Of a stretch of DNA of 64,000 nucleotides, positions 12,936 through 38,674 are shown one piece after another (the first letter of the stretch is position 1; each line of letters starts with the position of its first letter). Location of the stretch: the IMG/VR virus record IMGVR_UViG_3300050821_017216, positions 1 to 64,000 of that record; one strand, given 5' to 3'. Source of the stretch: a virus. The position numbers were made by a program, and so were the translations under genes. The notes under the pieces were generated by a model. It searched no databases and was not told where the DNA came from. It saw only the letters and a program-made list of their open reading frames with translations.

Positions 12936-13813
12936 TGGTCAGTCCCGATCTTCGAGAAGTCGTGCTCGTTCTTGAGCCCTTTACGATACTGTCGCCAGCC
13001 CCACAGGTTGCCCATAGGGACGCGCCGTTCCACCCACCCGGCAGCCAGCTCGGTGCTGTAGACCACCCACTGCTCCTCGGTGAGAGCCTGCGCGACGTGC
13101 TCGAATGGGCTCATGTGCCCGGCCGCCGCGAGCTTGTCGACGCGCGCGAGGTCCGCGGGTGGGTCTCGCTTGTCATGGTTCAGGTAGCTGACGGCCGCGC
13201 ACCGGCCGATACTGATCCGGCAGATGTCGTCCGGACCGTAGCCCAAGATGTGCCCGTCGTAGCCGGTCACGTACGGCAGGTGCCACATCCCGGCAGAGAG
13301 TCGCTGCGGCTCGCTCTTCTGCCAGAGTCGATGGGCCTTGCCAGCGACGTCGGCCAGCTCCGGCTGTGCGGCCGCGTGGTCGCGGAGCGCGAAGAAATTG
13401 TCGAACTCCGTCGCCGTCACGACAACCGTGATGAACATGCCGAGCTCCGCGGCGCGGTTGGCGACCTGCTTGTGCAGGCCTAGGTTCCCTAGCTCGCAAG
13501 CGTACCGCACGCCGCTCATGACGGCCTCGAGCCAGACCCTCCGCGCCTCCCTGAGCGCGAAGTCGGTCAGCTCCTCGCGCGCGGCCATCCCCGACTGGTT
13601 CTTTCCCCACCACACCGGGAACACCGGGTCCTCCTCGATCCGACCGAGCAGCCTCTCGGTCGGGATCGCGCGCGAGGACGCGCTGTTGCGTGACAGGACA
13701 CGGTGCGTGAGCAGCTCGGCATGGACGATGCGCGGATAACTCAACTCGAACGTTGTCAATCGCGCGCCGTTCGGGCCCACACTGTCAAGGATGATCTTCG
13801 CCTCGTACGCCAT
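12932..13813 (-). CDS. thyX: FAD-dependent thymidylate synthase-like protein
   Basis: YPRIVHAELLTHRVLSRNSASSRAIP; FFALR; HMSPFEHVA (phage ThyX family). Confidence 0.85.
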   Translation of the reverse strand: MAYEAKIILDSVGPNGARLTTFELSYPRIVHAELLTHRVLSRNSASSRAIPTERLLGRIEEDPVFPVWWGKNQSGMAAREELTDFALREARRVWLEAVMSGVRYACELGNLGLHKQVANRAAELGMFITVVVTATEFDNFFALRDHAAAQPELADVAGKAHRLWQKSEPQRLSAGMWHLPYVTGYDGHILGYGPDDICRISIGRCAAVSYLNHDKRDPPADLARVDKLAAAGHMSPFEHVAQALTEEQWVVYSTELAAGWVERRVPMGNLWGWRQYRKGLKNEHDFSKIGTDQ

Positions 13814-13814
13814 G

Positions 13815-14066
13815 TCAGGCCCCTTTCTCTGCCTGCGCGCGAGCGCGCATCAACTCAGCCTCTTCAGCTCCCCGCACGAGCAGCGCGGCGAGGTTGCGCG
13901 CGGCGACCGGGTCGAGGCGGCGCATGGCCCCAACCACGCCCGTCCGGAAAGAGCCGTTACACTCAAACAGGTTGAGCGAAACACCTTCCGTGTCGGCCCA
14001 CACTTCACCTGCGTCGTACGGGCTGTTGTGGTTCGGTCCCCTCACGCCACCTATGAATACGCTCAT
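13815..14066 (-). CDS. Hypothetical protein
   Basis: 83-aa ORF between HerA-like gene and thyX. Confidence 0.55.
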   Translation of the reverse strand: MSVFIGGVRGPNHNSPYDAGEVWADTEGVSLNLFECNGSFRTGVVGAMRRLDPVAARNLAALLVRGAEEAELMRARAQAEKGA

Positions 14067-15791: not shown

Positions 15792-16492
15792 CGGCTCACC
15801 CCACCGGCCGGGCAGCCGCCGCCGAGGTGGATCGATCGCGGGTAGCCGGTGCGGCGCTCGACGTACCCCCCGCACCTCCCGCACACCGCGCGCGTGACGC
15901 CGACCGACTCCACCGCCGGCTTCGGCTGCGCACTCGCCCGTCGGCGCGTCCGTACCGTCGGCCTGCGCACGCGGACGTGGCGCGGCGATCGGCTGACGAC
16001 GCGCCCGTACTCCACGCCGGCTCGCCACGGTACCAGGCGGCCGAGCTGCTGGGCCTCGGCGAACAGCTCCAGCACCTCCTCGCGCAGGCTCACGGCCCCC
16101 TCCAGCGGTTGCTCTTGAGGTGCGACTCGATGTCCGGGTGCTCGCGCACGGCCAGGATCTTGGCGCACGCCGGCGAGCAGGTCCGAGCCTTGGGCGACTG
16201 GTACTTCCGCTGGGGGACCGGCTCGCCGCAGACCGCGCAGTCGCAGATCTTGCCCATCACGGATCCCTCGGTTCGCGCGCATACCACGATTTATCCGGTA
16301 CGCCGCAGTGCGAGTTGAACCGGGCCGCCGCCCGGTTGAGTAAAACGATCGCTTGCGCCAACTCCGACACCGCCTCGTCCGAGTGGGAGGACTCCATCAC
16401 GCGAGCCGACGGAATGGCACACCGGGACACTCGAGCCGCTTCCTGCAGCTCACGCGCTACGTCGCCCAACGTCCTGCTGCGCGCGTCGCCGG

Positions 16493-17422
16493 TCATCCGG
16501 CCGCTCGCGCTGGTTCGTTGCGCCACTCTCCCGCGCGGATGCGCTCCGGGATGGCGGCCGGCGACCCGTCCCAGTTCTCGTCGCCGTTCCACGTGCGCTC
16601 GATCCACGCGGCGATGGCCTCCGCCGCGCCGTCCTCGACCTTCTTGAGATCTCTCACGGGCAGGGGGGTCGCCGACGGCGGCTCCCCGCCGCCGACGAGC
16701 TTCGGCTCGGGGAGACCCATGACCTCTCGGGCCTTTCTGGCGTTCGGGTTGCGCTTCTTGCCCGGCACCCGTGGCGCCTCGGCGAGCAGCTTCGCGAGCT
16801 TCGTGCGCGCCCCATCCGGCTCCTCACGCGCCAGCCTGTAAGCGTCCGAGACGGAGATCTTGCCCGCGTCGAGCGCGTTCCGTACGACCGCGGGCGCGTC
16901 GAGCAGCTTGAGCAGGCTCTTGACGGTCGACTCGCTCGCGCCGAGCAGGGCCGCCACCTCCTTCTCGTCGTGGCCGAGGTTGATGTACCGCTGAGCTTTG
17001 AGCGCGCGGTGCATCGGCGTGTCCGCCCGGCGGTGCTCGTTGGTGGTGATCATCATCGCCATCCGCTGCGACGCGTTCACCCGCTTGAGGTGTACCGGCA
17101 GCCGGAGCAGGGGCAGCCCCTGCTTCTTGAGGCGCTTGTTCGCCTCGCGACACGCCTTGGTGCGCTGCCTGCCGTCGGTGATCTCGATCTTGCCCGTCTC
17201 GGGGTTACGCGACCCGTTGAGGATCTCAAGGACCCCCTGCGGGGTCGCGCCGTCCGGCGCGTACATCATGCTGGCGACGAGCGCCTCGTCGAAGTCGTAG
17301 TGCACGCGCTCGTCGTAGACCGGCGAGTTCTTGTCCTCGACGAGGACGACGTCGTTCGGGTCGAAGTACCAGACGTCGGTCTTACCCTTCGCCTTGAGTG
17401 CGTCTCTCGATTGCTTCGGCAT
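16493..17422 (-). CDS. ParB-like protein
   Basis: EITDGRQR motif, TNEHR, followed by an HTH (EVAALLGASESTV). Confidence 0.7.
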   Translation of the reverse strand: MPKQSRDALKAKGKTDVWYFDPNDVVLVEDKNSPVYDERVHYDFDEALVASMMYAPDGATPQGVLEILNGSRNPETGKIEITDGRQRTKACREANKRLKKQGLPLLRLPVHLKRVNASQRMAMMITTNEHRRADTPMHRALKAQRYINLGHDEKEVAALLGASESTVKSLLKLLDAPAVVRNALDAGKISVSDAYRLAREEPDGARTKLAKLLAEAPRVPGKKRNPNARKAREVMGLPEPKLVGGGEPPSATPLPVRDLKKVEDGAAEAIAAWIERTWNGDENWDGSPAAIPERIRAGEWRNEPARAAG

Positions 17423-19179: not shown

Positions 19180-20112
19180 TCACGCGGCGGCGGGTGCGGG
19201 CTTGTCCGCGTCGGTGGATCCCTGCTTCGAGTTGAGCCGGATCTGCACGCGGTTGAACGCGTCGACCAGGCCGGCGGGGTACTGCTTGATCCAGTCGCGC
19301 ACGACCTTCTCGAACGCCTTGTCGCCGATCTCGGCGAGCATCGCGTCGAGCTCCTTCCTCATCTGGTCGCCGCGCGTGTCGTCCTCCTTGACGGCCCGCG
19401 CGAACTCGTCCCACGACAGCGGGAGCTTGTCCGGGAAGAGAGCCGTGCCGCGCGCCTTCGCGTCGTAGGCCGGCATGCGCTTGGTGTAGATCCACCGCTC
19501 GCCGGTGGTCGAGACCTTGGCGGGCTTGCCCTTCTCCACCACGGCGTGCGTCACGTTCTCGCGCGCGAAGAAGACATAGTCGCTCCAGCCCTTGAGCAGG
19601 GCGGCCACCTGCTTCCTGCACGCCAGCTCGAACCGCTCGTAGCCGGGACCCGTCGGGTCCTCGAACTTCTGCACCTTGGCGTGCGCGATGAAGATGATCC
19701 CCTTGCCGCTCATCCAGACGCGCTCGACCTGCGCGAGCAGGCGCCGCCACTCCATGACGGCGACGTCGTCCCCCTTGCCGTACCCGCCCTCGTACTTGGT
19801 GATCGTGCTGTTCGGGAAGAGCTTCGCGTGGCTCATGATCTCGAAGTCCGAGAGCACGTCGAGCGCGACGTTGTCGCACTTGACTTGCCCGTGCTCGATG
19901 GCCTCGAGCCAGTCGAACGTCTCGTCCCACGAGTCGATCTCGACGCGCTCGACGTCGAGCTTCGAGCTCCCCTTGTTGGCGTCGAGGAAGAACACGTTCG
20001 GTGCCCCCGCCGCCATCGTAGTCTTACCTACACCCTCGAACCCGTAGAGGACCACGCGCGGCGGCCGCGTGACCTTGCCCTTGACGATCCGTTTCAAGTC
20101 GACTGCTGCCAT
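19180..20112 (-). CDS. AAA_24/Sak4-like ATPase (ssDNA annealing)
   Basis: VVLYGFEGVGKTT Walker A, IIFIAHAK, LKGWSDYVFF, PAYDAKAR. Confidence 0.85.
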   Translation of the reverse strand: MAAVDLKRIVKGKVTRPPRVVLYGFEGVGKTTMAAGAPNVFFLDANKGSSKLDVERVEIDSWDETFDWLEAIEHGQVKCDNVALDVLSDFEIMSHAKLFPNSTITKYEGGYGKGDDVAVMEWRRLLAQVERVWMSGKGIIFIAHAKVQKFEDPTGPGYERFELACRKQVAALLKGWSDYVFFARENVTHAVVEKGKPAKVSTTGERWIYTKRMPAYDAKARGTALFPDKLPLSWDEFARAVKEDDTRGDQMRKELDAMLAEIGDKAFEKVVRDWIKQYPAGLVDAFNRVQIRLNSKQGSTDADKPAPAAA

Positions 20113-20114
20113 CT

Positions 20115-21167
20115 CTACACCTCCGCCCCGGTCGCGGGAGTCGAACCCGCCGCAGGCTGCCTGTCAGCACCGGGCGCGCCGAGCCACTCGCGCGGGTCAC
20201 CCTCGTAGATCGCGTCCATCTTGCCGGCCAGCCGGAACGTGCGCGACGTCGCCCCCGTCTCCGGGTTGACCAGGTCTACCTCGAACTGCGACTCCACCGC
20301 GACGATGCCGCGCGTGGCGTCGCCCCAGCGCGCCACGTAGCCGACGATCATCGCCCGCTCGCGCTGGTAGTCGTACGGGTCCTCGCGGTCGAGCGCGAGT
20401 AGGGCCTCGTCGAGCGACTTGCCCCTGCGAAGGGCCTCGACGGCCCGGTGCACGCTCGACCCGGTCCGCAGCGCCTCGGACCGAAGCACCGGTCGCATGT
20501 GCAGGATGTATCGGATCTGGTAGCGGCGCGGGCACGCGCGGAACGTGCGCATGCTCGACTGCGTGAGCACCACGCGGTCGGTCTCGAAGACGTCCTCGAG
20601 CTCCTCGTGCTCCTTGTCCTCGCGTCGGAATAGGAGCGGGTCGTCGAGCGGCACGTCCCCGCAGCACGCGGGCAGGAAGTCGCACGCGCGGCTCCACTGG
20701 AAGCACGAGTCGGGGTTGCGGGGATAGACGTTCAGGCGGCGCGCCTCGCGCATCGTCTGCGCCGTCTGCCAGACGTCGACCGCGCCGTCGTGCTGCTCCT
20801 GGAACAGGCGCACGGGGAGCGCCCGCTGGTAGTACGCGTCCGGCTCCGCGGCGATGGCTGCCAGGCAGCGCGCGCCGTACTCCTCAGGCGTCTCGTCGCG
20901 CTCGCGCTGGTTGGCGTAGAGGCGCGGCGTCGGTTCCTTCTTGGTTGGCTGGGTGTACTTGCGCGACTCGAGCGGCGTAGCCTTCAGCGGCCGCAGGGCG
21001 ACCTTGCCCAGGACGTCATAGCCTATGCCGGCGGGGTCAAGACCCTTCTGCACCGCGGCGCGCAGGTAGACGCCGATCTGGGGATCCATCCGGATTCGAC
21101 GCCAGTAATTCGACCCAGGCATGATGTCCTCGCCGGAGGTCTTCGTCTCGAGGATGAGGAGCGACAT
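20115..21167 (-). CDS. Circularly permuted PD-(D/E)XK (Cas4/AddB-like) exonuclease
   Basis: ETKTS, QIGVY and C-x6-C-x5-C come before TQSSMRTFRACPRRY, GSSVH, ESQF and GKMDA. Confidence 0.8.
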   Translation of the reverse strand: MSLLILETKTSGEDIMPGSNYWRRIRMDPQIGVYLRAAVQKGLDPAGIGYDVLGKVALRPLKATPLESRKYTQPTKKEPTPRLYANQRERDETPEEYGARCLAAIAAEPDAYYQRALPVRLFQEQHDGAVDVWQTAQTMREARRLNVYPRNPDSCFQWSRACDFLPACCGDVPLDDPLLFRREDKEHEELEDVFETDRVVLTQSSMRTFRACPRRYQIRYILHMRPVLRSEALRTGSSVHRAVEALRRGKSLDEALLALDREDPYDYQRERAMIVGYVARWGDATRGIVAVESQFEVDLVNPETGATSRTFRLAGKMDAIYEGDPREWLGAPGADRQPAAGSTPATGAEV

Positions 21168-26519: not shown

Positions 26520-26827
26520 GCATAGAGATAACGTTCGACGAGATCGTTGCGCTGGAACCAGAGCTCCAGCGACTGCGTAATGAGGCTAGAGCGATCCGCG
26601 ACGATGGATCCAAGAGTGGTTTCTGCGCAAACGCCATCTGGTACGGACACGGAGAGTATGAAGGTCTCGGATTCAAACCGAGGTTGAAGTGTCTCGTCGG
26701 ATGGAAACGGCGCGAAGGTCCAGAAGTTCTGAAGTCGTCGGAGGCTTACTACGTCGCGTACCGTACGATCTACAAGGAGCTTCCAGACTGTCGGCCAGGT
26801 CCTCGCTGCGGATGTGCCGCGCTTTGA
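26516..26827 (+). CDS. Hypothetical protein
   Basis: ATGA-coupled; MSIEITFDEIVALEP. Confidence 0.55.
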   Translation: MSIEITFDEIVALEPELQRLRNEARAIRDDGSKSGFCANAIWYGHGEYEGLGFKPRLKCLVGWKRREGPEVLKSSEAYYVAYRTIYKELPDCRPGPRCGCAAL

Positions 26828-27198: not shown

Positions 27199-27635
27199 GC
27201 TACTCCGTCCTCACCCTCCTCCAGGAGGAGGGGATGCAGCTCGAGTACGTCCAAGCCGTCGTCACCGCCGAGCAGCTCGCCAGCGGCGTCGACCTGCTGC
27301 GCACCCTCGGTAACGAGGTCACGCTCATCGGGGGTTGCACCGTCGAGGATCAGGTCTGGCAGAGCGCGCGCGTCAGCTGCGACGACCCCGCTGCGATCGT
27401 CTCGCTGTCGGCGGGTGCGCGCGTCGTGGGCGCGTTCTCCGTCGGCGACCGGCAGCGCCTCGCGAAGATGCTGCTCATCCCCCACGGGTCGGTCGTGCGC
27501 GCCGTGGCGCGCGGCCCAGCGCGGTTTGGTGGGCTGATGACCACCCGGTTCACGCTGGAGATCTTCGGGTGGGCCGTCCTCCAAGAGTTGTTCCCCGCCG
27601 TCGAGGCCGCCCTGGCGCTCCTGGAGTCATCGTGA
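27195..27635 (+). CDS. Hypothetical protein
   Basis: GTGA-coupled ORF. Confidence 0.55.
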   Translation: MSYSVLTLLQEEGMQLEYVQAVVTAEQLASGVDLLRTLGNEVTLIGGCTVEDQVWQSARVSCDDPAAIVSLSAGARVVGAFSVGDRQRLAKMLLIPHGSVVRAVARGPARFGGLMTTRFTLEIFGWAVLQELFPAVEAALALLESS

Positions 27636-28081: not shown

Positions 28082-28818
28082 CCCCGCTCGCAGCCGCCAT
28101 GGCCGCGTTCCACCTGACGGCGGCGCTGCCCGCAGCCGCCCTGGCGCTAGCGCGCTGGCGACCGGAGCTCCAGCCGGAGCCACCAGCGACCGCACCCGAC
28201 CCGAGGGCGGTGGCGCACGAGGCCGGGCACGCGCTCGTGGCCTGGCACTGCACGTCGGTGACCCGCGTGCTGCGCGTGGACGTCACGCGGTCCTCCGACG
28301 GCCAGCCGGGTGGGCACGTCCTACTCAATCGCCTCGCGTGGAGGGCGCCCGACGCGCTCTGGTGCGAATTGGCCGTGACGCTCGCCGGGATGGCCGGCGA
28401 GCTTGTGGTGTTCGGTCGAGTGCGGAGCCTGAACTCCGCCGACGACCTCGCCCAGGGGCTGTCACTCGCCCGATCGCTCGCTGAGATCGGGACCCCACCG
28501 CCGTGGTCCGACGTGCCCGCGTCGACCCTCGCGTTCGGTGACATGTTCGCGGATCCGATCGACGGGGCGGTCATCGGCGTGATGCGCGCCGGCTACGCGA
28601 TGGCCCGCCACGTCATCATGGAGCGGAGCCTGCCGTTCTGCAGACTCATGGCCGCGCTGTCGCTAGGGTCCGCTCTCGGGGAGGGCGAGCTCGCGGCCGC
28701 GCTCGGCCCGCGGCCGTTCTCCCAAGTCATCGTCGCCGTCTTGGCGGCGACCGGAAGGTACGTGCCGGCGCGGTTCGTCCTGGAGCCTCAGACGAACCGA
28801 GTCTCATACGCCAAGTGA
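28078..28818 (+). CDS. Peptidase M41-like zinc metalloprotease domain protein
   Basis: VAHEAGHALVA (HExxH), LAGMAGE, SADDL. Confidence 0.65.
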   Translation: MTPLAAAMAAFHLTAALPAAALALARWRPELQPEPPATAPDPRAVAHEAGHALVAWHCTSVTRVLRVDVTRSSDGQPGGHVLLNRLAWRAPDALWCELAVTLAGMAGELVVFGRVRSLNSADDLAQGLSLARSLAEIGTPPPWSDVPASTLAFGDMFADPIDGAVIGVMRAGYAMARHVIMERSLPFCRLMAALSLGSALGEGELAAALGPRPFSQVIVAVLAATGRYVPARFVLEPQTNRVSYAK

Positions 28819-29081
28819 GATCTCGTTGGTCGCGCACGCGGGTCATTCGATCCTCGGCAGAAACGCACCACACCCGCACCCTTGCGAGCAGTGCGTCGGC
28901 TCCGGTGTTCCAACCGGATGCGCGTGGCCATGGTGTAGCTCGTGGGAGTGCCCGCACCGAGCGCAAGGTTGCATGAGCGGGCACGTCGGCGCGTGCGGCC
29001 CCTGGATCATGTTCACCGAGATGAACAGCGCTCCACATCCCCTGCACGGGTAGATCCCCATCTAACAGCTCCTCGCGCGCA

Positions 29082-29366
29082 TCATGGCGCCGGTTGCGAC
29101 GCTTCAAATAGGCCCGTGGCTACGTGCAACACGCACACGAACCCCGGCACGACCGACTCGGCGCCCGGGACGCATCGGGCGCACGCGTGGTCCTTCTCGA
29201 ATGGGCGATGGGCGTGGTGCTCTACGATCCACTTCGCCATGTGCAGCGAGAGTGTGCGGGAGTCGTCAAGAGCCGTGAGCAACTTCCTGTACTCGTCGAT
29301 GGCGGCTCCCTGCGAGCAGCCGGCCGACGTGCTGTAGAGCAGCTTGGCAAACTCCTTGTCGGTCAC
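29082..29366 (-). CDS. Hypothetical protein
   Basis: 94-aa ORF ending next to the junction motif at 29075. Confidence 0.6.
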   Translation of the reverse strand: MTDKEFAKLLYSTSAGCSQGAAIDEYRKLLTALDDSRTLSLHMAKWIVEHHAHRPFEKDHACARCVPGAESVVPGFVCVLHVATGLFEASQPAP

Positions 29367-29655
29367 CTCTTCGTCTCCTCATCCCCCAGCCCATTACGCA
29401 ACCGCCTACCAAGCTTCCACGCCCTACGATGCAGCGACCCGGGGGCGCCCTCGGGAATTGTCGCTGGGTTCTCCACGGTGTCGAGAAGGTTGGCCATGCG
29501 TCGTTCCCAAACCGCATTAGTGCTCCTCTCGGTGCGCTCTCCGCACCCGGCGAGCTTGTCCGCCATGACGTCCGCTTGGTAGTCGGCGTGGTCCACTATG
29601 GCCATGCGTTCCTCATCTCCCGGCTTGCCCATAATCTTCCCTTTCATTGCGCACA

Positions 29656-29838
29656 TCACTTCGCGGATGCCACCGACACGCACGCCGGTGTGCTCTCGGG
29701 GTCTGTCGACAGACGGGCGCGTGTTCCGTCTGGGCACGTGTCCCGTCGAGATGGTCCGCACCGCAACATCGGGTTGCGTGTGCAGTCGCATGCGGCGAGC
29801 GATGCCGCTGCAAGGATGATCGCTACGATTCGCTTCAT
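29656..29838 (-). CDS. Small putative lipoprotein
   Basis: MKRIVAIILAAASLAAC signal peptide and lipobox; strong RBS. Confidence 0.65.
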   Translation of the reverse strand: MKRIVAIILAAASLAACDCTRNPMLRCGPSRRDTCPDGTRARLSTDPESTPACVSVASAK

Positions 29839-29887
29839 CGCCTTTTCCTTTCAGTCCCTCGCGCGCACGCGGGTGCGGCGATCGTCC

Positions 29888-30136
29888 TCACGTCTCCGTC
29901 CCGGGCCGCACATTGGTGGCGTCGGTGACCTCGATGCACACGACGTTACTCGCGACGGGACGCACGCGCATCGACCCGTTCTTGACTCGGATCGAGAGCG
30001 TCCCCTCGCTCTCCTGCCGACCTGCATGGGAGCACAACACCTCAGCTCCGTTCGGAAGCACGAACAGGACGCGAGCGTCGTCACCGAGGTCGGTCTCCGT
30101 ACGCTTCACGATGTCATCTAGGTAGACCTTCTTCAT
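29888..30136 (-). CDS. Hypothetical protein; second copy at window start
   Basis: 82 aa, AAGGGAG RBS; 5' part identical to 1-76. Confidence 0.75.
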   Translation of the reverse strand: MKKVYLDDIVKRTETDLGDDARVLFVLPNGAEVLCSHAGRQESEGTLSIRVKNGSMRVRPVASNVVCIEVTDATNVRPGTET

Positions 30137-30386
30137 CTTTGCTCCCTTCGCGCGCACGGTGGGTGCGCAGTTGTTCCCTACGCCTGGCACCTGTCCAACC
30201 ACCATTCCCGCCAGCAGAGCGTACACGCCGTGGGGCAGTGACAGGAGCCGGTGTTGTGGTCCGCCTCGTCTTGAGCCGACGCGCCCAGCTTCCCACACTC
30301 GGTACAAGGTACCCCGGTCCGGCTCAGCTCCGGACCTGCAACGTTCGCCTCCGAATTCTGAGAGGCGCGCAGATGGGTGAGTTTCA

Positions 30387-30770
30387 TTACGACCTTTCGT
30401 TGGGTGCGTAGGCTGTCCTTCCGCCCACACCTCGCCACGGCTCCACGTCCAAAGTGCGACCGTCGCGATGCTTGACAGCCCATCGATTCGACCGCCGACC
30501 GTGAACGAAGATGCTCCAGACGGGACCGCGCGGAAGAGTCACCCGGTGGAACCGTTCCGCTCGCAAGACATTGAAGAACCATCGAATCCTCGGCGATTCG
30601 CCGAATCTCTCTTCAAGGTACCGCCCGAGGATAAGGCTCACACCGCTCCAAGGGTGCGAGTGAAAGACGTCAGCATCTTCGTCGTGGTGGATGTGGTGAA
30701 CGAACAGACCGAACCCGAATGCCTGTAGGACGTAGAAGCGGTCCAGGTTGTCTCGACGGGACACTTTCAT
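30387..30770 (-). CDS. Cupin-like protein
   Basis: FHSHPWSGVSLILGRYLEE...FHRV. Confidence 0.5.
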   Translation of the reverse strand: MKVSRRDNLDRFYVLQAFGFGLFVHHIHHDEDADVFHSHPWSGVSLILGRYLEERFGESPRIRWFFNVLRAERFHRVTLPRGPVWSIFVHGRRSNRWAVKHRDGRTLDVEPWRGVGGRTAYAPNERS

Positions 30771-30798
30771 GGTCGGCTCCGAGACGCGCGCAGATGGT

Positions 30799-31131
30799 CT
30801 ACCGCGGCGCCCGCAGTTTTTCGACGCGGTCTCGATTGAGTACATCGTGCGTGTCGGCGACCATCATGGCGAAGTTGGCCACGTCTGCGCACTCGCCGAG
30901 GAGCTTGGCGCAAGCGTCGTCGTGCGCCCGCTGGTCTCGCTCCGACCAATCCACCTTGGCCTCGATGCGCGTCAGCGTGTCCAGGATTGCGAACAATTCG
31001 CGTAGTTCGGTCCGGAGGCGACGGCGCAGGTAACCGCGTCCGCAGTCCGCCCACCCGCCCTTGTGGTCATTGCGCCGGAGCTTGGCATCCATCGCCTCGG
31101 CGAACCGCCTCACCTCGACTCGTTCACTCAT
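30799..31131 (-). CDS. MazG-like/nucleotide diphosphohydrolase-like protein
   Basis: FAEAMDAKLRRNDHKGGW...ECADVANFAMM. Confidence 0.5.
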   Translation of the reverse strand: MSERVEVRRFAEAMDAKLRRNDHKGGWADCGRGYLRRRLRTELRELFAILDTLTRIEAKVDWSERDQRAHDDACAKLLGECADVANFAMMVADTHDVLNRDRVEKLRAPR

Positions 31132-31193
31132 CGTTTTCTCCAGTTTGGGCAAGGCGCGCATTTTAGACAGTCTGTCGTCCGATCCGCCGCGTC

Positions 31194-32042
31194 TCATTCG
31201 GCAGCCTGCTGCGTTCGAGTCAAGGCCCCAAGACGCCGCCTGGCAGTGAGTACGTAGGCGTCAGACTGCTCCACACCGACCACGTCATCCCACCCAGCGC
31301 CGAGTGCTCCGAGCATTTCCGATCCGGAGCCGGCGAACGGGACTAGCAGGCGTCCAACGCCAGAACTAGGTAGAATCAACTTGGCGAGCGCGGAGCACAA
31401 CAGGATCGGCTTTGGCGTCGGATGGCCCGAGTCGGACCGCTCTGCCTTCGTTGGCTTCGGGTGACGCACCACGTTCTCTGGATGTGACGTCCCCTCAGTC
31501 CGAAGGTCCCCTACACCCCAACAAACCACGTTGAGCGGTACGGTGCTCTCTGTCAGCGGACGACGCGCCAGCACGATCGGTTCGTAGGTTGGGCGCAATT
31601 CGGTTGTCCTGCTCTTAGGAACGCCGTGACCGTGCTCCCACGCGATACTGTCGCGCACCTCCCACCCGGCATCCTCGATTCCGGCAGTCAGTCGGTGGAC
31701 CGTGCGCGGCGACCCGAACGCAAAGAGCCATGCTCCAGGTTTTACAACTCGGAGTAGCATTGCAGCCCACTCGACCGTCCAGACATGAAAAGCTGTGTTC
31801 GTGCGGCTGCGAAAGGCTACTCGATCCTGCGGATTGCCCCCTCGCCCGTAGCCCTTCATGCGGCCCTTGTTCCCGTATCCGGCTTCCGAGCGAGCCTTGT
31901 ATTCCCGCTGCCTGCCAGGGTCGTCCCATCGTTGGGATGAGAGTGCGTATGGCGGGTCGCAGAGAACCCCATCGAACGTCATCGGCGTCATGCTGGGCAA
32001 GATGTCCTCGACGCGCCCGTGAATGACCTCAAAACGTCTCAA
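31194..32042 (-). CDS. N6/N4 DNA methyltransferase
   Basis: VLCDPPY, HPTPKP, VPFAGSGS. Confidence 0.85.
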   Translation of the reverse strand: MRRFEVIHGRVEDILPSMTPMTFDGVLCDPPYALSSQRWDDPGRQREYKARSEAGYGNKGRMKGYGRGGNPQDRVAFRSRTNTAFHVWTVEWAAMLLRVVKPGAWLFAFGSPRTVHRLTAGIEDAGWEVRDSIAWEHGHGVPKSRTTELRPTYEPIVLARRPLTESTVPLNVVCWGVGDLRTEGTSHPENVVRHPKPTKAERSDSGHPTPKPILLCSALAKLILPSSGVGRLLVPFAGSGSEMLGALGAGWDDVVGVEQSDAYVLTARRRLGALTRTQQAAE

Positions 32043-32081
32043 TTCGATCCTCCGCCTCGGGTTGCGCGCAACCGGATGACT

Positions 32082-32384
32082 CTAACGCTCGGCAGAAACC
32101 GGGAACTTCTCGGCGAGGCGAGCGGTCACCGCGGCGTCCAGATCGATGTCCGCGCCCGAGAACCGCGACGCGCAGATGACGAGGTCTGCCAGGTACGGCG
32201 CGACCTCGGAATGCTTGAGCGCTCGCCCCTCGTGCTGCGAATCGTTCAACGCCGACGCGACCTTACCGAGCGCCTTCGTCATGTGAACGAGCGCATGCCC
32301 AGCGTCCGCCGAGGCGTGGCACGGGTTGTTGAGTTGCTGCTCCCACCTGATGTTCACTTCCGCTTGCAGTCTTGAGAGGTCCAT
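32082..32384 (-). CDS. MazG-like protein
   Basis: HMTKALGKVA...LADLVICA...LDAAVTARLAEKF. Confidence 0.55.
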   Translation of the reverse strand: MDLSRLQAEVNIRWEQQLNNPCHASADAGHALVHMTKALGKVASALNDSQHEGRALKHSEVAPYLADLVICASRFSGADIDLDAAVTARLAEKFPVSAER

Positions 32385-32441
32385 TCCCGTTTCCTTTCGT
32401 CGGTTTGGGTCGCGCGCAGATGGGTGAGTCTGGCGCTCGCA

Positions 32442-33380
32442 TTAGTCATGGCAGAAGCAGTCCCCCAAGTCGTCCTCTGTCCCACACGTTTTGGGGTCGT
32501 CGACCCGCCTCGCGAGTACCCGGAGCTGGCGGTAGGCGGGGCGGTCCTGGCGGAACAGGGAGCCCGCGTCGCGCTCGACGTCCTGCCACCACTTGAGCCG
32601 TCCGGGCTCCTCCTGCTCGATGCGCAGGAGCTTCGACGTCGCCTTGAGGATGCACCCGTCGCAGTTGCCGCGATAGGTCCCGAGCACATCGTCGATGGGC
32701 AGTCCTAGGTCGAAGTCCTGCGTCTTCCAAAACGCGATGACGCGAGCCTCGTCGACCTTGGCCTCCGCGAGAGGCATCACGTGCTCCCACCGTTCGGGCG
32801 GGGAGCGCTTCAACTTGGCCACGCGCGAAGGTTCGTCGGCGCGGATGCCCATGACCATGTCCCACTTCTCGTAGCGACGCTCAAGCATCCACCGCTTCAT
32901 CACGCGGACCTTCATCTCCGTTGTACACGTGCGAAAGGCTGGATTCGGCAGGCCGCTCATGGCGACGAAGTTCTCGTACGGCTCGCCCTCGCGCGATGCG
33001 GTCTCGAAGGTCACCTCTCGGAAACCGCGCTCGCGCGAATCGTCGAGTCCTGCGTTCGCCCACTGACGTGGTCGCGACATCCAAGCCGCCTTCGGGCGCT
33101 TCGACCTGAAGCGTTCAGCGATGGCGCGAACCTCGTCGCTCTTGTACTTCGGTAGCTCTTGGCGCTCGTACTCCAGCCAATGCACGTCGACACCCCAGTA
33201 GCGAGCGATCTGGTCAACGAACGTGAGCGTCTCTCGGTACTCCTTGCCGGTGTTGCAAAAGAGCACGTGGACGTCCGGCTGTAGCCCCTCGTCAAGGATG
33301 CGACGCAGCATGTAGGCGCTCGTGCGCCCTCCGGAGAGGGAGATGACGGCGGGACCTTCGACGAGGAACGGGGACTTCAT
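32442..33380 (-). CDS. PAPS-reductase-family (PP-loop) protein
   Basis: ISLSGGRTS, FCNTGKE, CTTEMK, GIRADE, GNCDGC, C-terminal CFCHD. Confidence 0.85.
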   Translation of the reverse strand: MKSPFLVEGPAVISLSGGRTSAYMLRRILDEGLQPDVHVLFCNTGKEYRETLTFVDQIARYWGVDVHWLEYERQELPKYKSDEVRAIAERFRSKRPKAAWMSRPRQWANAGLDDSRERGFREVTFETASREGEPYENFVAMSGLPNPAFRTCTTEMKVRVMKRWMLERRYEKWDMVMGIRADEPSRVAKLKRSPPERWEHVMPLAEAKVDEARVIAFWKTQDFDLGLPIDDVLGTYRGNCDGCILKATSKLLRIEQEEPGRLKWWQDVERDAGSLFRQDRPAYRQLRVLARRVDDPKTCGTEDDLGDCFCHD

Positions 33381-33414
33381 GGCAGCTCCGGGCTTGCGCG
33401 CAGATGGGTGAGTC

Positions 33415-34056
33415 TCATTCCGCAGCTTTCGCGGTCCCGCTCGACCTGCGCGCGAGGTCGATCAGGAGGTCTCGAAACGGCAACGGCGTTGCCGCACGCT
33501 GTTGGTGGGAGAGCCGTTGGCAGATGCCGGTCTTGCGCAAACGGGCCCGCTCTTCCTTCGAGTGGTAAACGTCCTCAAGCTTGATTTGCATCTTCGGGAT
33601 GCTCCAGTCGAGCGCGGGCGGCAGACCACGACCGGCGTAGTAGAGCCAGGTCAGCTTGCGAGCTCGGTGCCCGTAGTTGCCTTGGGCGACGCAGCACACG
33701 TAGCCATCCCACTGGTCGACGCATTCGAGCCAACCCTTGCGCCAGGACGGGCAAGGTAGGCCGTGCGCGCGGAAGGCGAGGCTCGCCTCGGGGTGCTCTA
33801 GGACGCCACCGAACCGTCGCACCGACTCCAGCGCCGACGCGAAGCATCCGCCGTCGTCGCCGAGCGTCTTCTGTCGCGGCGTGCCGTGCAGCATCGGGCC
33901 GCCTCCCCAGTACCGCCCCCAGCGCTCGCACGGCGGATGCGCCACGACCGGCCAAGGGCCGGCGTACTTGCGCGCGTCCCTCGTTACGTCCCACGGGTCG
34001 ACGCCATCGACACCAAAGTAGGCGCCTCCGGTTGCTACGAAAAGTGCGGCAATCAT
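33415..34056 (-). CDS. Truncated C5-cytosine methyltransferase-like protein
   Basis: VVAHPPCERW, GVLEHP, RAATPLPF. Confidence 0.6.
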   Translation of the reverse strand: MIAALFVATGGAYFGVDGVDPWDVTRDARKYAGPWPVVAHPPCERWGRYWGGGPMLHGTPRQKTLGDDGGCFASALESVRRFGGVLEHPEASLAFRAHGLPCPSWRKGWLECVDQWDGYVCCVAQGNYGHRARKLTWLYYAGRGLPPALDWSIPKMQIKLEDVYHSKEERARLRKTGICQRLSHQQRAATPLPFRDLLIDLARRSSGTAKAAE

Positions 34057-34089
34057 GGGTCCTCCGAGGTAGCGCGCAGATGGGTGAGA

Positions 34090-34272
34090 CTACTTCTTGC
34101 CGCTTTTGGAGCTTCCGCCCTTGAGCGACGCAGCCTTCTCTGACCGGCTTTGACGGTCGCGGAGGTACTCCGCTGCCTTGGTGTCGCCTCGTCGCTCTGC
34201 GTCTTGCCGCAAATTCAATGCTTCCTTGGCGTCCTGCTCGTACATCTCTGACTCCGACTTCGGTGTGCTCAT
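34090..34272 (-). CDS. Small hypothetical protein
   Basis: AAGGAG RBS; MSTPKSESEMYEQD. Confidence 0.55.
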   Translation of the reverse strand: MSTPKSESEMYEQDAKEALNLRQDAERRGDTKAAEYLRDRQSRSEKAASLKGGSSKSGKK

Positions 34273-34528
34273 GTTTGCTCCTTTCAATGCGCCGAGGCGC
34301 GGCGCGCGCATATGATTCACTCTAGCTCTCCCGAAATCGCGATCTGGTACGCCATGTGCAACGAGTAGTCGTCTGACGGTCTACGCCTCCGGTCCTTTGG
34401 GAAGAAGGTCCACCTTCCCACGGAAAGCTCCCTCCAACCGGCGCTAACGCCAGACACGTACGGGCGCTCGCGTAGGTAGGCGAGCATCTCGTCATCCGTT
34501 GGCTGCATGAGGGATGCGTGCATGGCGG

Positions 34529-34813
34529 CTAGTTCGGCGCTCGCAACTCTCGTTCGAGCTCCTCAACTCGTTTTTGCAGCTCCGCCTCACGCTCTCGCGC
34601 TGCCTTTCGCTTTTTCTGGAGATGGCCGCACACGTAGGTGGCACCTCCGAAGAGGCCGAACAGTGGAGCCGCCATCGGCCAAAACAGCGAGCATAGAAAC
34701 GGGAAGGGCGTGTTCCACGGACTGTCAAGTTCGTCGATGCACCAAGCCACCCCAACGAAGGTGCAAAAGGCGACGAGCCCGTACCCGATGATGATTACGA
34801 TCGTTGTAAACAT
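34529..34813 (-). CDS. Small membrane protein
   Basis: Two hydrophobic segments plus a coiled-coil tail; CSLFWP. Confidence 0.65.
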   Translation of the reverse strand: MFTTIVIIIGYGLVAFCTFVGVAWCIDELDSPWNTPFPFLCSLFWPMAAPLFGLFGGATYVCGHLQKKRKAAREREAELQKRVEELERELRAPN

Positions 34814-34841
34814 GGTCTTCTCCGGTGCGCGCGCATGAGGA

Positions 34842-35114
34842 TTAGCCTCCGACGCGCGGTTTCATGTTGCTCATCACGCTCTCGATTCGCTGACGCACCT
34901 CGGCCACTCCGGCGTTGTGGCCCCGTCTGTAGCTCTCTCGCATGTCGGGGCAGGCTTCACACTTGATGCACGTGTCGCACTCTGGACGGTAGTGCCCATA
35001 GCCAGGTTTGAAGTTTTTGCGAGCGTCCTCTGTCTCGACGTTGAAGCCGCACCCTTGGCACTTGACCATCGGTCGCGGCTGGTCGGCAAAACCCTCTGAC
35101 GTGTCTTCGCTCAT
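34842..35114 (-). CDS. Zn-finger hypothetical protein
   Basis: GGAGG RBS; CQGC, CDTC and CEAC motifs. Confidence 0.6.
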   Translation of the reverse strand: MSEDTSEGFADQPRPMVKCQGCGFNVETEDARKNFKPGYGHYRPECDTCIKCEACPDMRESYRRGHNAGVAEVRQRIESVMSNMKPRVGG

Positions 35115-35380
35115 GGTCCCTCCGGTGAAGCGCGCATATCGACCAGCGCGCCTTCCGTTGCTTCTTGCATGCCCATCAGCTCTTGTGTCTCCCGTCTACG
35201 ACAGCCCGCACGAAGTCGTCGCCGCTCATCCGGTCGAACGCCCCGCACGTCGGCTGCGCGTGCAGGAGGTGCCCTGGGTCGTCAGGCGGGTCGCCCCACC
35301 GGACCGAGACCGCGCGCCCGCAGTACGGGCACCGACCGTCCACGTCCGACCTGACCACCTCGCCCCCCGACCGGTCTCCG

Positions 35381-38300
35381 TCAGCCACTCGCGCCTCCCT
35401 TCCCTCGTACGAACCGCATCGCGTCCCGGATCCGCTCGTCGGGCCAGCCCCACTCGGTCGCGACGGCCCGCGGGTCCCCGGCACCGCTCAGCGTGGCCTG
35501 GTGGAGCGCCTGGCCGTCCGCGCGCGCCTTGGACTGGCGGTGCTTCGCCAGCGCCCGGGCCCGCCCAGCGCGTGCCTCTGGCCAGCCCAGGGTCTTCGTG
35601 GTGGCCCGCCACTCGGACTCGTCTAGGTCGAAAAGCACGGACGAGTCCGCCTCCGTCTGCTCGTCCGCCGTGGGCTGGCGAGGTGTGGCGGGTGTGGCGG
35701 AGTGTTTTTCGAGGTGTGGCGGAGGCTCCGCCACACCTCCGTCTCTATAGTTACCGTCAGTTAGACCACGTGTGGCGGGTGTGGCGGGTGTGGCGGAGCT
35801 ATTTCCGCCACTCCCCCCCGGTGTGGCGCGTGTGGCGCCATCACTAGGGGGTATGGGGGATTTTTTTGGACCGCCCATCACACACCGATCGGTAGGTAAG
35901 TCACCACCGTCTGAGTCTGGTTGCGGGGCGTACTGCCCCGACGGGTAGTGCTTCAGGTCCTTCGGGTTGCTCCTGTCTACGGTGATGGTGTGTGACACGC
36001 TCTCACAATAGGAGATCGCGGCGTCAGCCCGGTCCTTTCCACACTCGCCCATCGCGGCGGCCATCGACGCCCGGAGCTGACGCGAACCGATCCCTGGCGA
36101 CCGTGAGACGACCCTCAGGCACGCGTCCCGGTCCCGGGCGCGCTGCTGCTCCTTCGAGTCCGCGGCGGCGGCTCGCCGCTGGGCGACCTCCTCCTCGGCC
36201 TGCCGCCTCTCCTCCTCCTTCTGCTGCCTCTTCTGCTCCTTCGACCGGTCGGCCTTGCTGAGGGCCTCGACGACGGCATCCCCACCGTCCCTGGCGGGCT
36301 CGTACCGGAAGCCCGTGAAGTGCATCGGGGTCCACCGCGCCCCCGTCGCGCGCCCCTTGGCGGTGACGAAGACGACGCTCTCGCCCTGGCCGTCCACGTA
36401 GGTGTCCGGGACGCGCGACAGGACACTGACGCTGTCGGCGCCGTACTCGATCTCGCCGCTCTCCTTGCCGAGGCCGACGAGGACGTCCGGGATCGTGACG
36501 CGCCGGTTGACCAGGCGGTCCTTGTCGTAGTCCCAGCTCAGGTCGGCGCTCATCACCATCGGCCAGAGCCCGTACTTGTCGCGCGCGACGGACGCGACGA
36601 CGAGGATCGCGATGTTGTGGTGCGTCGCCACCTCGCGCAGCGCGTAGGCGGCGCGCCCGATGCGCTCGCGCAGGTCGAGCGTCTTGTACTTACCGTCCTC
36701 GTCCTCCTCCGGGCCGACGATCTGGAGGTAGTCGAGGACGATCAGGATCGGCCTCGACCCGGGTCCGCCGGAGTTCAGCGTCTCGGACGGGGGCGGCTCC
36801 GGGTACTTCTGGCGGAGCGCGGCGGCGAGCGCGTGCACCTTGCTCGCGGGCCAGCCCATCGGGTTGCGGTTGACCGGGTGCAGCGGGAGTTTCCCAGCCT
36901 TCGCTTTCTCTGCGAGTTCGATCGCGACCGTGGCCGCGCGCTCGAGTGCGTCCTGGCTGGTCTGACCGGTGTAGAGGTCGCTCCACCGGAGCTTCGCCTC
37001 CTCGCCGACCACGCGCAGGTCGAACTGGAGATCGTCCATCTCGAGGCCCACGTAGGCCGTCGGGACGCCCTGCTCGGCGGAGTGCTTGCAGATCTGCAGG
37101 ACCGCGGCGGTCTTGCCGACCCCGGTGCCCGAGCAGAGGATGTGCAGCCCCGGCCACAACCCCCCGCCGAAGTGCTCCTTGAGATCGCCCCACGGCAGCG
37201 GCACCGGCTTCTCGATCCCGACCGATCGCCGTACGGCGCGCGCGACGGATGTCTTGAGGTGCTCGCCGATGGTGGGCGCCCACTTGTCGAGGTCGTCTTG
37301 CTCGGGCCCGGCCGGCGCGGCGGGGAGGGGCGGCTCGGCGGCCTGCGAGTGGGTCGGGGCGCCGACGACGAGTTCCAACCCGAACCGGTCGCTGATCGCG
37401 ACGACCGCCTCGCGCGCGGCGACGTGGTGGACCTCCATGACGAGGTCGATGTTCGTTCTGAACCCGGCGCGCCCCTTGTCCTTGCAGCGGTTGTGGTGGC
37501 ACTTCAAGCCGTGGTTGAGGATCGAGACGCCGCTCGTCTCGCCGCAGCCCGGGCACGTGACCTCGCCGCTCGCGTTGTATAGGCCCAGCCACTCGGCGAC
37601 GGCCTGCGGGTCGACGGAGTTCGCGAGCGAGTACGGCGAGTCCGGGTTGTCGCGCATCGGCGACACGACGCTCGGCGCCGCTGCCGGCTGCAGGCGCGAC
37701 CCGAGGACGCCGAACGCCTTCTCCATGGCGGCCCGGCCGTCGGGGTTCAACCCGTCCCAGACGGTGCGCGCGAGCTCGACGATCCGCGCCAGCGAGAGGC
37801 GCGTGACCGCCTCGGGCGTCACGATGGCGGTGCGCCGGTGCGGGCGGTCCTCGACGCCCGCCGCGCCCTTCTTCTTCAGGGTCCCGCACGCGGGCAGGAT
37901 GCGCTTGGCATCGAAGAGCTTCTCGTCGACCGACACCTCTGGCGTGTTGAAGAGGTGAGCCAAGCCCGTGAGCAGCCCCGCTATCGCGTTCTTCGACTCA
38001 TCAGTCACCGGCACCGCGTCGAGCGCGACGTGGATCTGCCGGCCGTTGCCCGAGTGCAGGTACGCGAGCGAGCTCTCTCCGTCGAGGTGGTGCGCGAGGA
38101 AGTTCCACGCGCTCTGCGCGACGCGCACCGACCGCTGCACCTCCTCGTCGGTCGCCGAGATGCCCGACGGGCGCTTGACGTCGAAGTCGATCGCCAGGAT
38201 GAGTCGCGCCTCGACGTCCGAGTCGGTCGTGCCGGCGCCCTTCTGGATGTCAAACCAATGACCCGGCGCGGCGTTGCGCGACTCGACGCCGGCGCGCAGG

Positions 38301-38674
38301 CGCGCGGGCAGGAGGTAGGTGCCGTGCGCGATCCACGTGTCTGCGGCCGCGCAGAGCAGGACGGCCTCCTCGGGGCTCCGAGCGTGCGAGGCGCGCGTGC
38401 GCTCGAACGAGTCGGTCGGGTAGCGCCTGAATCCCAGCACCTGGAACTCGAACACCCTCTCACCACCACCCACGAACGCGAGCTGGCGGCGCAGGTTCGC
38501 CTCGAGCCCCTCCGCCTGCGCGCGGAGAAGGCGATCCTCGAGCGGGGCGCTCTCGGTCCCGGACGGCCCGTCGCCAGACCCACCCCCACCGGACCCGGAT
38601 CCAGTCTTCTGCTCCGCTACGAGTTTCCAGAAATCTCCCGAGGAGATCCGCTCGTAGCCGTCGTCCGACATCAC
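35381..38674 (-). CDS. Primase-polymerase (AEP)-Zn finger-DnaB-like SF4 helicase fusion
   Basis: IDFDVK, SGNGRQIH, DEKLFDAKRI (AEP); CPGCG...CHHNRC; GTGVGKT, GLEM, VLDYLQ (SF4). Confidence 0.85.
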   Translation of the reverse strand: MMSDDGYERISSGDFWKLVAEQKTGSGSGGGGSGDGPSGTESAPLEDRLLRAQAEGLEANLRRQLAFVGGGERVFEFQVLGFRRYPTDSFERTRASHARSPEEAVLLCAAADTWIAHGTYLLPARLRAGVESRNAAPGHWFDIQKGAGTTDSDVEARLILAIDFDVKRPSGISATDEEVQRSVRVAQSAWNFLAHHLDGESSLAYLHSGNGRQIHVALDAVPVTDESKNAIAGLLTGLAHLFNTPEVSVDEKLFDAKRILPACGTLKKKGAAGVEDRPHRRTAIVTPEAVTRLSLARIVELARTVWDGLNPDGRAAMEKAFGVLGSRLQPAAAPSVVSPMRDNPDSPYSLANSVDPQAVAEWLGLYNASGEVTCPGCGETSGVSILNHGLKCHHNRCKDKGRAGFRTNIDLVMEVHHVAAREAVVAISDRFGLELVVGAPTHSQAAEPPLPAAPAGPEQDDLDKWAPTIGEHLKTSVARAVRRSVGIEKPVPLPWGDLKEHFGGGLWPGLHILCSGTGVGKTAAVLQICKHSAEQGVPTAYVGLEMDDLQFDLRVVGEEAKLRWSDLYTGQTSQDALERAATVAIELAEKAKAGKLPLHPVNRNPMGWPASKVHALAAALRQKYPEPPPSETLNSGGPGSRPILIVLDYLQIVGPEEDEDGKYKTLDLRERIGRAAYALREVATHHNIAILVVASVARDKYGLWPMVMSADLSWDYDKDRLVNRRVTIPDVLVGLGKESGEIEYGADSVSVLSRVPDTYVDGQGESVVFVTAKGRATGARWTPMHFTGFRYEPARDGGDAVVEALSKADRSKEQKRQQKEEERRQAEEEVAQRRAAAADSKEQQRARDRDACLRVVSRSPGIGSRQLRASMAAAMGECGKDRADAAISYCESVSHTITVDRSNPKDLKHYPSGQYAPQPDSDGGDLPTDRCVMGGPKKSPIPPSDGATRATPGGSGGNSSATPATPATRGLTDGNYRDGGVAEPPPHLEKHSATPATPRQPTADEQTEADSSVLFDLDESEWRATTKTLGWPEARAGRARALAKHRQSKARADGQALHQATLSGAGDPRAVATEWGWPDERIRDAMRFVRGKGGASG
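35683..35838. repeat. GTGTGGCG iteron-like cluster with a perfect 14-bp inverted repeat
   Basis: Direct copies at 35683, 35692, 35714, 35770, 35779, 35788, 35821, 35830; hairpin 35711-35739. Confidence 0.8.

Follow-up and report, generated by a model that had tools for sequence, protein, structure and literature searches.

An uncultured high-GC virus with a genome of 119,899 bp carries arrays of small genes joined by linkers built around a 7-bp core, TGCGCGC, and the best reading, which we favor with modest confidence, is that these are hyperplastic cassette arrays exchanging genes at the conserved linker. Our analysis establishes the architecture of the arrays, the restriction of the motif to them, its retention in several viruses next to differing genes, and the cassette-wise differences between relatives. 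Positions refer to the window, the whole 64,000-nt stretch of DNA that was analyzed.

Linker architecture and placement in the arrays

Because array 2 is encoded on the minus strand, the element, listed in the first-pass annotation as GCGCGCA, reads (CTCACCCATC)TGCGCGC on the coding strand, upstream of each gene. All 13 listed copies were found, and 13/13 coding-orientation copies of TGCGCGC in the array 2 region are intergenic; the three variants listed beside them are one-mismatch cores (28830–28836, 29649–29655, and 34516–34522), the first starting at 28830 rather than 28831. TGCGCGC is placed 1–13 nt past a stop codon and 13–42 nt ahead of the next start, just 5′ of the ribosome-binding site (RBS), with a separate GGAG downstream of the core at array junctions, and all core copies are co-oriented with the array genes. 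The array and its upstream neighbors are laid out as follows:

35381–38671 (−): 1096-aa primase/DnaB-like helicase, the backbone anchor for finding relatives
35176–35388 (−): 70-aa Zn-ribbon gene directly upstream of array 2, ~60% amino acid identity to relatives G001/G003 and G002
28782–35175 (−): array 2, an accessory-gene slot of ~17 small genes, ~6.4 kb, from gene map and synteny breaks
35130–35136 (−): core TGCGCGC, 15 nt before the start of gene 34842–35114
34829–34835 (−): core, 15 nt before the start of gene 34529–34813 (membrane protein)
34516–34522 (−): variant core TGCACGC, before gene 34317–34523
34304–34310 (−): core, 31 nt before gene 34090–34272
34072–34088 (−): type-A 17-mer CTCACCCATCTGCGCGC, 1 nt past a stop; core ends 15 nt before gene 33415–34056 (phrog_12600)
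33396–33412 (−): type-A 17-mer, 2 nt past a TGA stop; core ends 15 nt before gene 32442–33380 (PAPS-reductase-like)
32412–32428 (−): type-A 17-mer, 13 nt past a stop; core ends 27 nt before gene 32082–32384
32064–32070 (−): core inside palindrome GGTTGCGCGCAACC, 21 nt before gene 31194–32042 (N4/N6 DNA methyltransferase)
31154–31193 (−): type-D linker (~40 nt plus core), before gene 30799–31131
30786–30792 (−): core (CCATCTGCGCGC), 15 nt before gene 30387–30770 (cupin-like, phrog_4786)
30365–30381 (−): type-A 17-mer, 5 nt past TAA (2 nt past an in-frame TGA); core ends 22 nt before gene 30178–30342
30061–30158 (−): 98-nt duplicated stretch containing core 30150–30156, its leader, and the 5′ part of gene 29888–30136
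29861–29887 (−): type-B linker (GGACGATCGCCGCACCCGCG plus core), before lipoprotein-like gene 29656–29838
29649–29655 (−): variant core TGTGCGC, directly past a stop, before the two-gene cassette 29363–29632 and 29082–29366
29075–29081 (−): core, 13 nt before gene 28843–29061
28830–28836 (−): degenerate terminal core TGCGCGA, past the last gene, with no cassette after it

The exact 17-mer GCGCGCAGATGGGTGAG does occur four times, as first annotated (30365, 32412, 33396, and 34072, the third having been placed at 33395). There is no other copy within 3 mismatches, four matches arose in 0/100 shuffles, and the whole 119,899-bp genome contains no further copy. The copies had been described as directly following stop codons; all start soon past one, at spacings of 1, 2, 5, and 13 nt on the coding minus strand, and their cores end 15–27 nt before the next start. 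Across the 120-kb genome, the exact 7-mer is present at 18/19 same-strand junctions of the two arrays versus 0/37 junctions elsewhere (Fisher P = 9e-14), and a palindromic TGCGCGCA at 23539 is the only motif copy at operon heads. Junctions of core operons use 4-bp overlaps, as reported earlier, and the two genes of the 29363–29632/29082–29366 cassette likewise share a 4-nt overlap and lack an intervening core.

Array 1, which has this same arrangement and contains a RyR-like cassette common to G003, is listed here with solitary core sites and candidate recombination genes:

1–2200 (−): array 1, same architecture as array 2, with cores at 90, 385, 621, 917/925, 1356, and 1854
910–1366 (−): cassette of core, leader, 120-aa gene, type-C linker, and tandem cores, 95.2% identical to G003 1188–1644
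13843–13849 (−): solitary core before thyX, where G002 homology breaks and G002 has an extra gene
16258–16492 (−): ~230-nt insert between a ParB-like gene and a 55-aa gene, absent from G002, ending in a core (16275) and RBS
19180–21167 (−): Sak4-like ATPase (AAA_24) and PD-(D/E)XK nuclease, candidate recombination machinery

Array genes have a median length of 90 aa and a GC3 of 0.76, versus 0.88 elsewhere (P = 2e-11), and they match accessory PHROG families or nothing; by these sequence measures the cargo looks foreign and resembles phage accessory genes. Phages store and exchange genes for anti-defence, DNA modification, and host takeover in accessory arrays, and array 2 has a DNA methyltransferase and a PAPS-reductase-like gene. 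Relatives of the latter are only 34–39% identical and none has the motif; the RyR-like gene family is likewise common in unrelated phages without it. The virus lineage, which is largely unannotated, also carries a Cas12m-like CRISPR system, and spacers of the virus gave no match to the arrays of its relatives.

Cassette-wise differences among related viruses

Our comparison set comprises three distinct viruses and ~five independent structural differences. A fixed gene order in relatives, named in the first-pass annotation as evidence against shuffling, was not what we found: array 2 is missing from both related lineages (G002 and G001/G003), and arrays occupy different slots in different viruses. 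Synteny with G002 breaks at the Zn-ribbon stop (35176) and at ~28781, and the corresponding G002 slot is ~395 bp holding one unrelated 114-aa gene, while in the G001 type, without array 2, the helicase directly abuts convergent genes. The G001/G003 array adjoins homologues of this virus's own 64–67 kb region, and a G002 mini-array sits upstream of the helicase. The indels at 16.3 kb and 13.8 kb are single-unit and each abuts a core, the G002 site of the 16.3-kb insert being core-less. Among the contigs of these viruses, three break off within arrays, in one case 6 nt from a core.

At the nucleotide level, the RyR-like cassette matches that of G003 with 95.2% identity, against 68–89% (about 77%) for the backbone. 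The matching stretch begins 4 nt 5′ of one core and stops ~7 nt 3′ of the following one; the genes to either side are unrelated between the two viruses. Within the genome, the stretch at 30061–30158 is 100% identical to positions 1–98, with identity stopping 2 nt 5′ of the core, although a 98-nt duplication that equals k − 1 for k = 99 and touches the contig end could be a product of the assembly graph. Joining the contig ends into a circle was rejected, as the ORF does not run across the join.

Linker families A to D are common to the three viruses and lie between unrelated genes. The exact 17-mer is found in relatives between different genes at other places, the type-D linker of 31154–31193 recurs between unrelated genes in G002 (27427–27470), and the type-B linker of 29861–29887 recurs in G002 at 26745 and in array 1 at 1854. 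The leader of core 35130–35136 (ttcaccggagg) precedes a different gene in G003, and tails and leaders vary independently of each other on either side of the core. One cassette gene has a homologue in L009, a more distant relative, where it belongs to an ordinary overlapping operon without the motif, which makes the linker lineage-specific; no alternative junction motif was found near the helicase genes of more distant relatives. A search of IMG/VR for the 17-mer and the type-B motif placed them in arrays only on contigs of two related viruses, the remaining matches being single and within coding sequence, and a phage database search gave no close relative among GenBank phages. The 17-mer has single scattered, chance-consistent matches in 185,579 species genomes; none has a cluster, and on this ground a host chromosomal motif was rejected.

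Proposed exchange mechanism and competing explanations

In our preferred reading, array 1, array 2, and the few solitary sites would be hyperplastic accessory regions made of exchangeable one- or two-gene units. Each unit's linker would consist of a variable 3′ tail (families A to D) running from the upstream stop, the invariant 7-bp core TGCGCGC, and a short RBS leader, and genes would be acquired, lost, and exchanged between related viruses through recombination inside these linkers. The core would be the likeliest crossover point because it is the only sequence common to all linker families. Exchange would be driven by homology or microhomology and may use general functions, for example the Sak4-like annealase and PD-(D/E)XK nuclease, rather than a dedicated site-specific enzyme; the annealase proposed earlier is indeed encoded (AAA_24, E = 1.7e-33), its gene adjoining that of the nuclease. 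The linker itself may be kept for array-specific expression, for example through a regulator docking on DNA or mRNA beside each RBS. Since linkers are 20–70 nt long, any intergenic crossover should leave its breakpoint close to the core, and given an intergenic breakpoint its coincidence with the core is not significant (roughly 0.45 per boundary). One point against is that homology of 7–12 nt is a poor substrate for most homologous recombination. The original idea of a gene-shuffling system survives insofar as gene order among relatives is not fixed and their differences are cassette-wise; no dedicated recombinase was found, and the principle is already published.

We consider it unlikely that the motif is purely a regulatory site, that is, a DNA operator (stoperator-like) or mRNA translational operator through which a viral or host factor switches the arrays together, with cassette exchange incidental. 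Such a site alone leaves the cassette-wise indels and swaps between relatives unexplained, as well as the recombination of tails and leaders around the core, although it would account for a motif that is strictly gene-oriented, adjoins the RBS, is array-specific rather than genome-wide, and is conserved across viruses between different genes. Some copies lie within palindromes (GGTTGCGCGCAACC and TGCGCGC-tc-GCGCGCA), and the cluster K SAS/ESAS repeats and stoperators offer published parallels (PMC3203893), but no regulator was identified, and the spacing before the start codon is uneven (13–42 nt).

Dedicated cassette capture by a viral integron analogue is rather unlikely. In that case an unrecognised site-specific recombinase or nuclease would act on TGCGCGC as its core site, and the 3′ tails would be attC-like and travel with the upstream gene. 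Every cassette boundary does have the invariant 7-bp core, and the variable tail families end precisely there; the shared RyR-like cassette runs core to core with its tail moving with the upstream gene, and the duplication boundary is 2 nt from a core. However, the 3′ identity of that cassette continues ~7 nt beyond the core, so crossover does not fall at a set position, and the 16.3-kb insert entered a core-less site, as seen in the G002 state. A dedicated recombinase elsewhere in the genome, as the first-pass annotation had envisaged, was sought among the tyrosine (PF00589) and serine (PF00239) families; neither has a match in this genome, with tyrosine-recombinase positive controls matching in 14/14 genomes, and a site-specific integrase or resolvase was rejected. 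Most large proteins of the virus have no Pfam match, and a novel enzyme could hide among them; we regard as quite unlikely an integron-like system that lacks a tyrosine integrase and relies on an enzyme among the unannotated proteins to insert and excise units of gene and 3′ tail core-to-core. Folding of 29 junctions gave a mean z of 0.06 versus shuffles with no common hairpin, unlike attC, and the linkers have no Rfam match; a conserved RNA or DNA hairpin, whether attC-like or PeSL-like, was rejected on both counts.

Finally, a compact virus-specific promoter or transcript start site per cassette, equivalent to the PeSL early promoter, is very unlikely: a dense, co-oriented 17–22 nt element before each small gene recalls T7-type or T4 early promoters and would leave a short leader including the RBS, but a sigma-70-like consensus scan found 1 site versus 0.8 expected, not at a junction, the position matrix has no −10-like hexamer (the would-be A2 is C in 21/28 sites), the GC-rich core does not melt easily, other operons lack the motif at their heads, and neither a sigma factor nor a single-subunit RNA polymerase was found, the polymerase search (PF00940) having no positive control, as control genomes were likewise without a match. 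Terminators show no excess, and a promoter or terminator reading was rejected on the consensus scan and matrix.

Comparison with known systems

In integrons, each cassette carries an attC site that includes a 7-bp core site; attC clusters lacking an integrase also occur. The arrays described here share with them co-oriented, mostly promoterless small genes, differences in array content between relatives, and a variable element 3′ of each gene that ends in a conserved 7-bp boundary core. They differ in that no IntI-type integrase was found, the linkers are 20–70 nt without a conserved imperfect-palindrome fold, and the core TGCGCGC is unrelated to GTTRRRY.

Two repeat systems of mycobacteriophages are also similar in placement. 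The SAS of cluster K is a 13-mer that contains the Shine-Dalgarno sequence 3–7 bp from the start (Pope et al. 2011, PMC3203893); SAS/ESAS function is unknown, and the repeat is conserved across subclusters before different gene families (PMC3203893). Like SAS/ESAS, the linker is an asymmetric, one-orientation repeat just upstream of starts, at non-structural genes only and before varied gene families, whereas its core lies 13–42 nt from the start, upstream of a separate RBS, and is a mark of cassette exchange. Cluster A stoperators, the second system (PMC3203893), occur genome-wide, with copies at the early promoter too, and bind the phage repressor. They too are short, asymmetric, multi-copy sites in small intergenic gaps, oriented with transcription, but the sites here are confined to accessory arrays and no repressor was identified.

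The promoter-early stem-loop (PeSL) cassettes of T4-type phages undergo modular shuffling (Arbiol et al. 2010, PMC2839356; Comeau et al. 2014, PMC4122927). A PeSL combines a strong sigma-70-like early promoter with a terminator stem-loop, excised mini-circles are a further mark of the system, and exchange is ascribed to recombination between element copies (PMC2839356, PMC4122927). In both systems, hyperplastic regions hold small and mostly unknown genes flanked by a short conserved intergenic element that also bounds insertions, deletions, and replacements between relatives, although here the events are few and the linkers short. Unlike the PeSL, the element here has neither promoter consensus nor conserved hairpin; it is a GC-rich 7-bp core with variable tails, set directly against the ribosome-binding site, in a different, high-GC virus lineage. 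Element-bounded shuffling is therefore not an undescribed principle, the PeSL being the published precedent.

Our results extend cassette-wise exchange at a conserved linker to an unrelated high-GC lineage and to a linker without promoter or hairpin. The minimal 7-bp core offers a compact substrate for asking how short a homology Sak4-type phage recombination can use, as well as a practical marker for accessory-gene arrays in related metagenomic viruses. Together with the PeSL cassettes, the arrays suggest that a universal joint between small genes is a general principle and that the joint itself is lineage-specific.

Linker motif and the genes it separates

The virus record is linear (119,899 bp, 67.8% GC), lacks a terminal repeat and was scored complete by CheckV; the window covers its first 64 kb. 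It has no close relative among GenBank phages, and Pfam matches are lacking for most of its large proteins. Among ten large proteins (359–1205 aa) encoded between 70 and 118 kb, the presumed structural half, 0/10 matched Pfam and no terminase, portal or capsid family was recognised, making this a very poorly known type of virus. The features needed here are as follows (window coordinates).

954–1316 (−), cassette gene of 120 aa in array 1; matches phrog_18865 and phrog_5154, function unknown
12932–13813 (−), ThyX
16493–17422 (−), ParB-HTH protein
33415–34056 (−), protein of 213 aa in array 2; matches phrog_12600 (E = 3e-60)
35176–35388 (−), Zn-ribbon gene of 70 aa, with the array 2 genes downstream
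35381–38671, primase/DnaB-like helicase of 1096 aa, upstream of the array 2 genes
56334–58802 (+), UvrD-like helicase of 822 aa, interrupted by an intein splicing domain

With its ParB-like gene, the virus may have a plasmid-like or partitioned lifestyle, and the intein of the UvrD-like helicase holds a DUF559/MTES_1575 endonuclease-like insert.

Genes from 35388 to 28843 all read leftward, and their junctions carry the coding-strand motif TGCGCGC (the core), frequently in the longer form CTCACCCATCTGCGCGC. Junction order is constant: a stop codon, 0–40 nt, the core, 13–42 nt with a GGAG-type ribosome-binding site (RBS), and the start codon. Array 2 has 13 junctions with the exact core and three with a one-mismatch variant, and its sole coreless junction is a 4-nt overlap within a two-gene unit. 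Exact copies of the 17-mer, a linker sequence of tail type A, lie at 30365, 32412, 33396 and 34072; allowing up to three mismatches adds none, and four matches were reached in 0/100 shuffles. When same-strand junctions were compared across the whole genome using our own gene calls, the exact core was present in 18/19 junctions of arrays 1 and 2 and in 0/37 other intergenic gaps of 12–150 nt (P = 9e-14, Fisher's test). Two solitary sites, at 13843 (before thyX) and at 16275, share the array layout. The junction motif is thus real and non-random, and its near-confinement to arrays indicates that it belongs to the arrays and does not serve the virus as a general signal for transcription or translation.

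Array genes are small (median 90 aa), with a GC3 of 0.76 versus 0.88 in the remaining genome (P = 2e-11). Among the recognisable products are an N4/N6 DNA methyltransferase, a cupin-like protein and a PAPS-reductase-like protein; a few more hit PHROGs whose function is unknown, and about half have no match at all. The phrog_12600 gene adjoins the PAPS-reductase-like gene and lies one cassette from the N4/N6 methyltransferase gene. By eye only, PPCE and EHPE in its product recall motifs IV and VI of cytosine-5 methyltransferases. From this proximity and these motifs, these genes may act as a trio in DNA modification.

Unit-by-unit differences among related viruses

Homologues of the primase/DnaB-like helicase occur on long metagenomic contigs at 45–78% identity. 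We compared three distinct viruses: the present one (G000), one represented by G002 and G007 (~83% nucleotide identity), and a single virus represented by G001, G003 and G006 (~77%). In G002, homology to the window ends at the Zn-ribbon stop codon and restarts at ~28781; the array 2 slot, 395 bp long there, contains a single unrelated gene of 114 aa and, after it, a degenerate linker. The G001 type has the convergent genes directly abutting the helicase. The replacement in one relative and the direct abutment in the other indicate that the slot of array 2, at a convergent junction, is variable.

Arrays also occur elsewhere in the relatives. G001 and G003 carry one of at least 8 units adjoining homologues of the genes at window-record positions 64–67 kb, in which the 17-mer occurs twice in exact and once in near-exact form. 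Upstream of the G002 helicase lies a mini-array with four junctions, and none is present at that place in the window. In G000 (35176–35388) and G002 (32099–32284) the Zn-ribbon gene comes after the helicase; in G001 and G003 (7698–7850 in G003) it is found between homologues of the 65–67 kb genes, a different location which indicates that this gene is itself mobile.

The 120-aa cassette gene shares 99% protein and 95.2% DNA identity with a G003 array gene, against 68–89% for the backbone. The shared block runs from 4 nt before the upstream core to ~7 nt past the downstream core, and the genes flanking it in G000 and G003 are unrelated on either side. This family is very widespread in phages (238 IMG/VR loci, low-GC phages included), and the motif is absent from its flanks in 15/15 unrelated contigs inspected. 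The cassette gene at 32082–32384 has a 71% identical homologue in L009, a more distant relative, where it lies at 1675–1962 within an ordinary overlapping operon that lacks the motif. Single units differ as well. An insert of ~230 nt, terminating in a core and RBS, separates the ParB-like gene from a 55-aa gene in the window; G002 lacks it, and there the genes overlap each other. Homology to G002 is also interrupted at the core before thyX, where G002 carries one additional gene. The gain, loss and exchange of cassettes at linkers proposed in the first-pass annotation is well supported.

Linker mosaicism and contig ends

Pairwise alignment of all junctions, together with the G002 mini-array, gave four families of 3′ tails, each extending from the upstream stop codon or nearby to the core.

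Tail families of the linkers
A: TGA-nn-CTCACCCATC
B: GGACGATnGCCGCACCCGCG
C: GGACGAnCCCAG
D: tail of ~40 nt

All four families are common to the three viruses, between unrelated genes. Similarity between junctions mostly stops where the core ends on its 3′ side, and leaders beyond it, such as ttcaccggagg, recur behind differing tails; tails and leaders thus assort independently around the core, a pattern that recombination at the core would be expected to leave in these sequences. With linkers this short, a breakpoint anywhere between genes falls near a core; the mosaic is a better argument for the core as the candidate crossover point than such proximity.

Some contigs end within arrays. Positions 1–98 of the contig are identical to 30061–30158, an exact 98-nt repeat comprising a core, its leader and the 5′-most 76 nt of the gene at 29888–30136. 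Identity stops 2 nt before the core, and the other end of the repeat is the contig end. Its position at the contig end and its length, k − 1 for k = 99, leave the origin of the repeat ambiguous: an assembly-graph overlap, a genuine second copy and a population variant that connects array 1 with the gene at 29888–30136 could each explain it. A further G001-type assembly stops 6 nt beyond a core, and the start of G001 lies 129 nt from the same core; such breaks inside arrays are an effect that population-level heterogeneity would produce. The leftmost 240 nt of G003 are an inverted copy of adjoining sequence, probably a fold-back assembly artefact, and another assembly (L277) extends 1.8 kb beyond that end.

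Possible mechanisms and known systems

Searches of the linkers found no sigma-70-like promoter, no excess of terminators and no Rfam family, and the bases preceding GCGCGC do not spell a −10 hexamer. No common hairpin emerged from 29 folded junctions (mean z = 0.06). No tyrosine recombinase, serine recombinase or sigma factor was detectable in the genome; a search for a single-subunit RNA polymerase, run without a positive control, returned nothing. Clusters of the 17-mer were absent from 185,579 species genomes. The genome encodes a Sak4-like ATPase (AAA_24, E = 1.7e-33) adjoining a PD-(D/E)XK nuclease (19180–21167, minus strand).

We favor a model in which general short-homology recombination would carry out the exchange, since identity in the shared cassette extends past the core at its 3′ boundary and the searches revealed no site-specific enzyme. 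The core itself would be conserved as a putative array-specific regulatory docking site beside each RBS, a role favored because a GC-rich 7-mer without an AT-rich partner is a poor promoter and because the motif is absent from other operons. Were an enzyme dedicated to the core to be found, interest in this system would be high.

Integron attC sites, as well as the SAS/ESAS elements of cluster K mycobacteriophages and stoperators (both PMC3203893), are each partly alike and in part fail to match. The closest published parallel is the promoter-early stem-loop (PeSL) cassette element of T4-type phages (PMC2839356, PMC4122927). The element differs, and two defining PeSL features for which we tested are absent here, but the genomic logic is the same.
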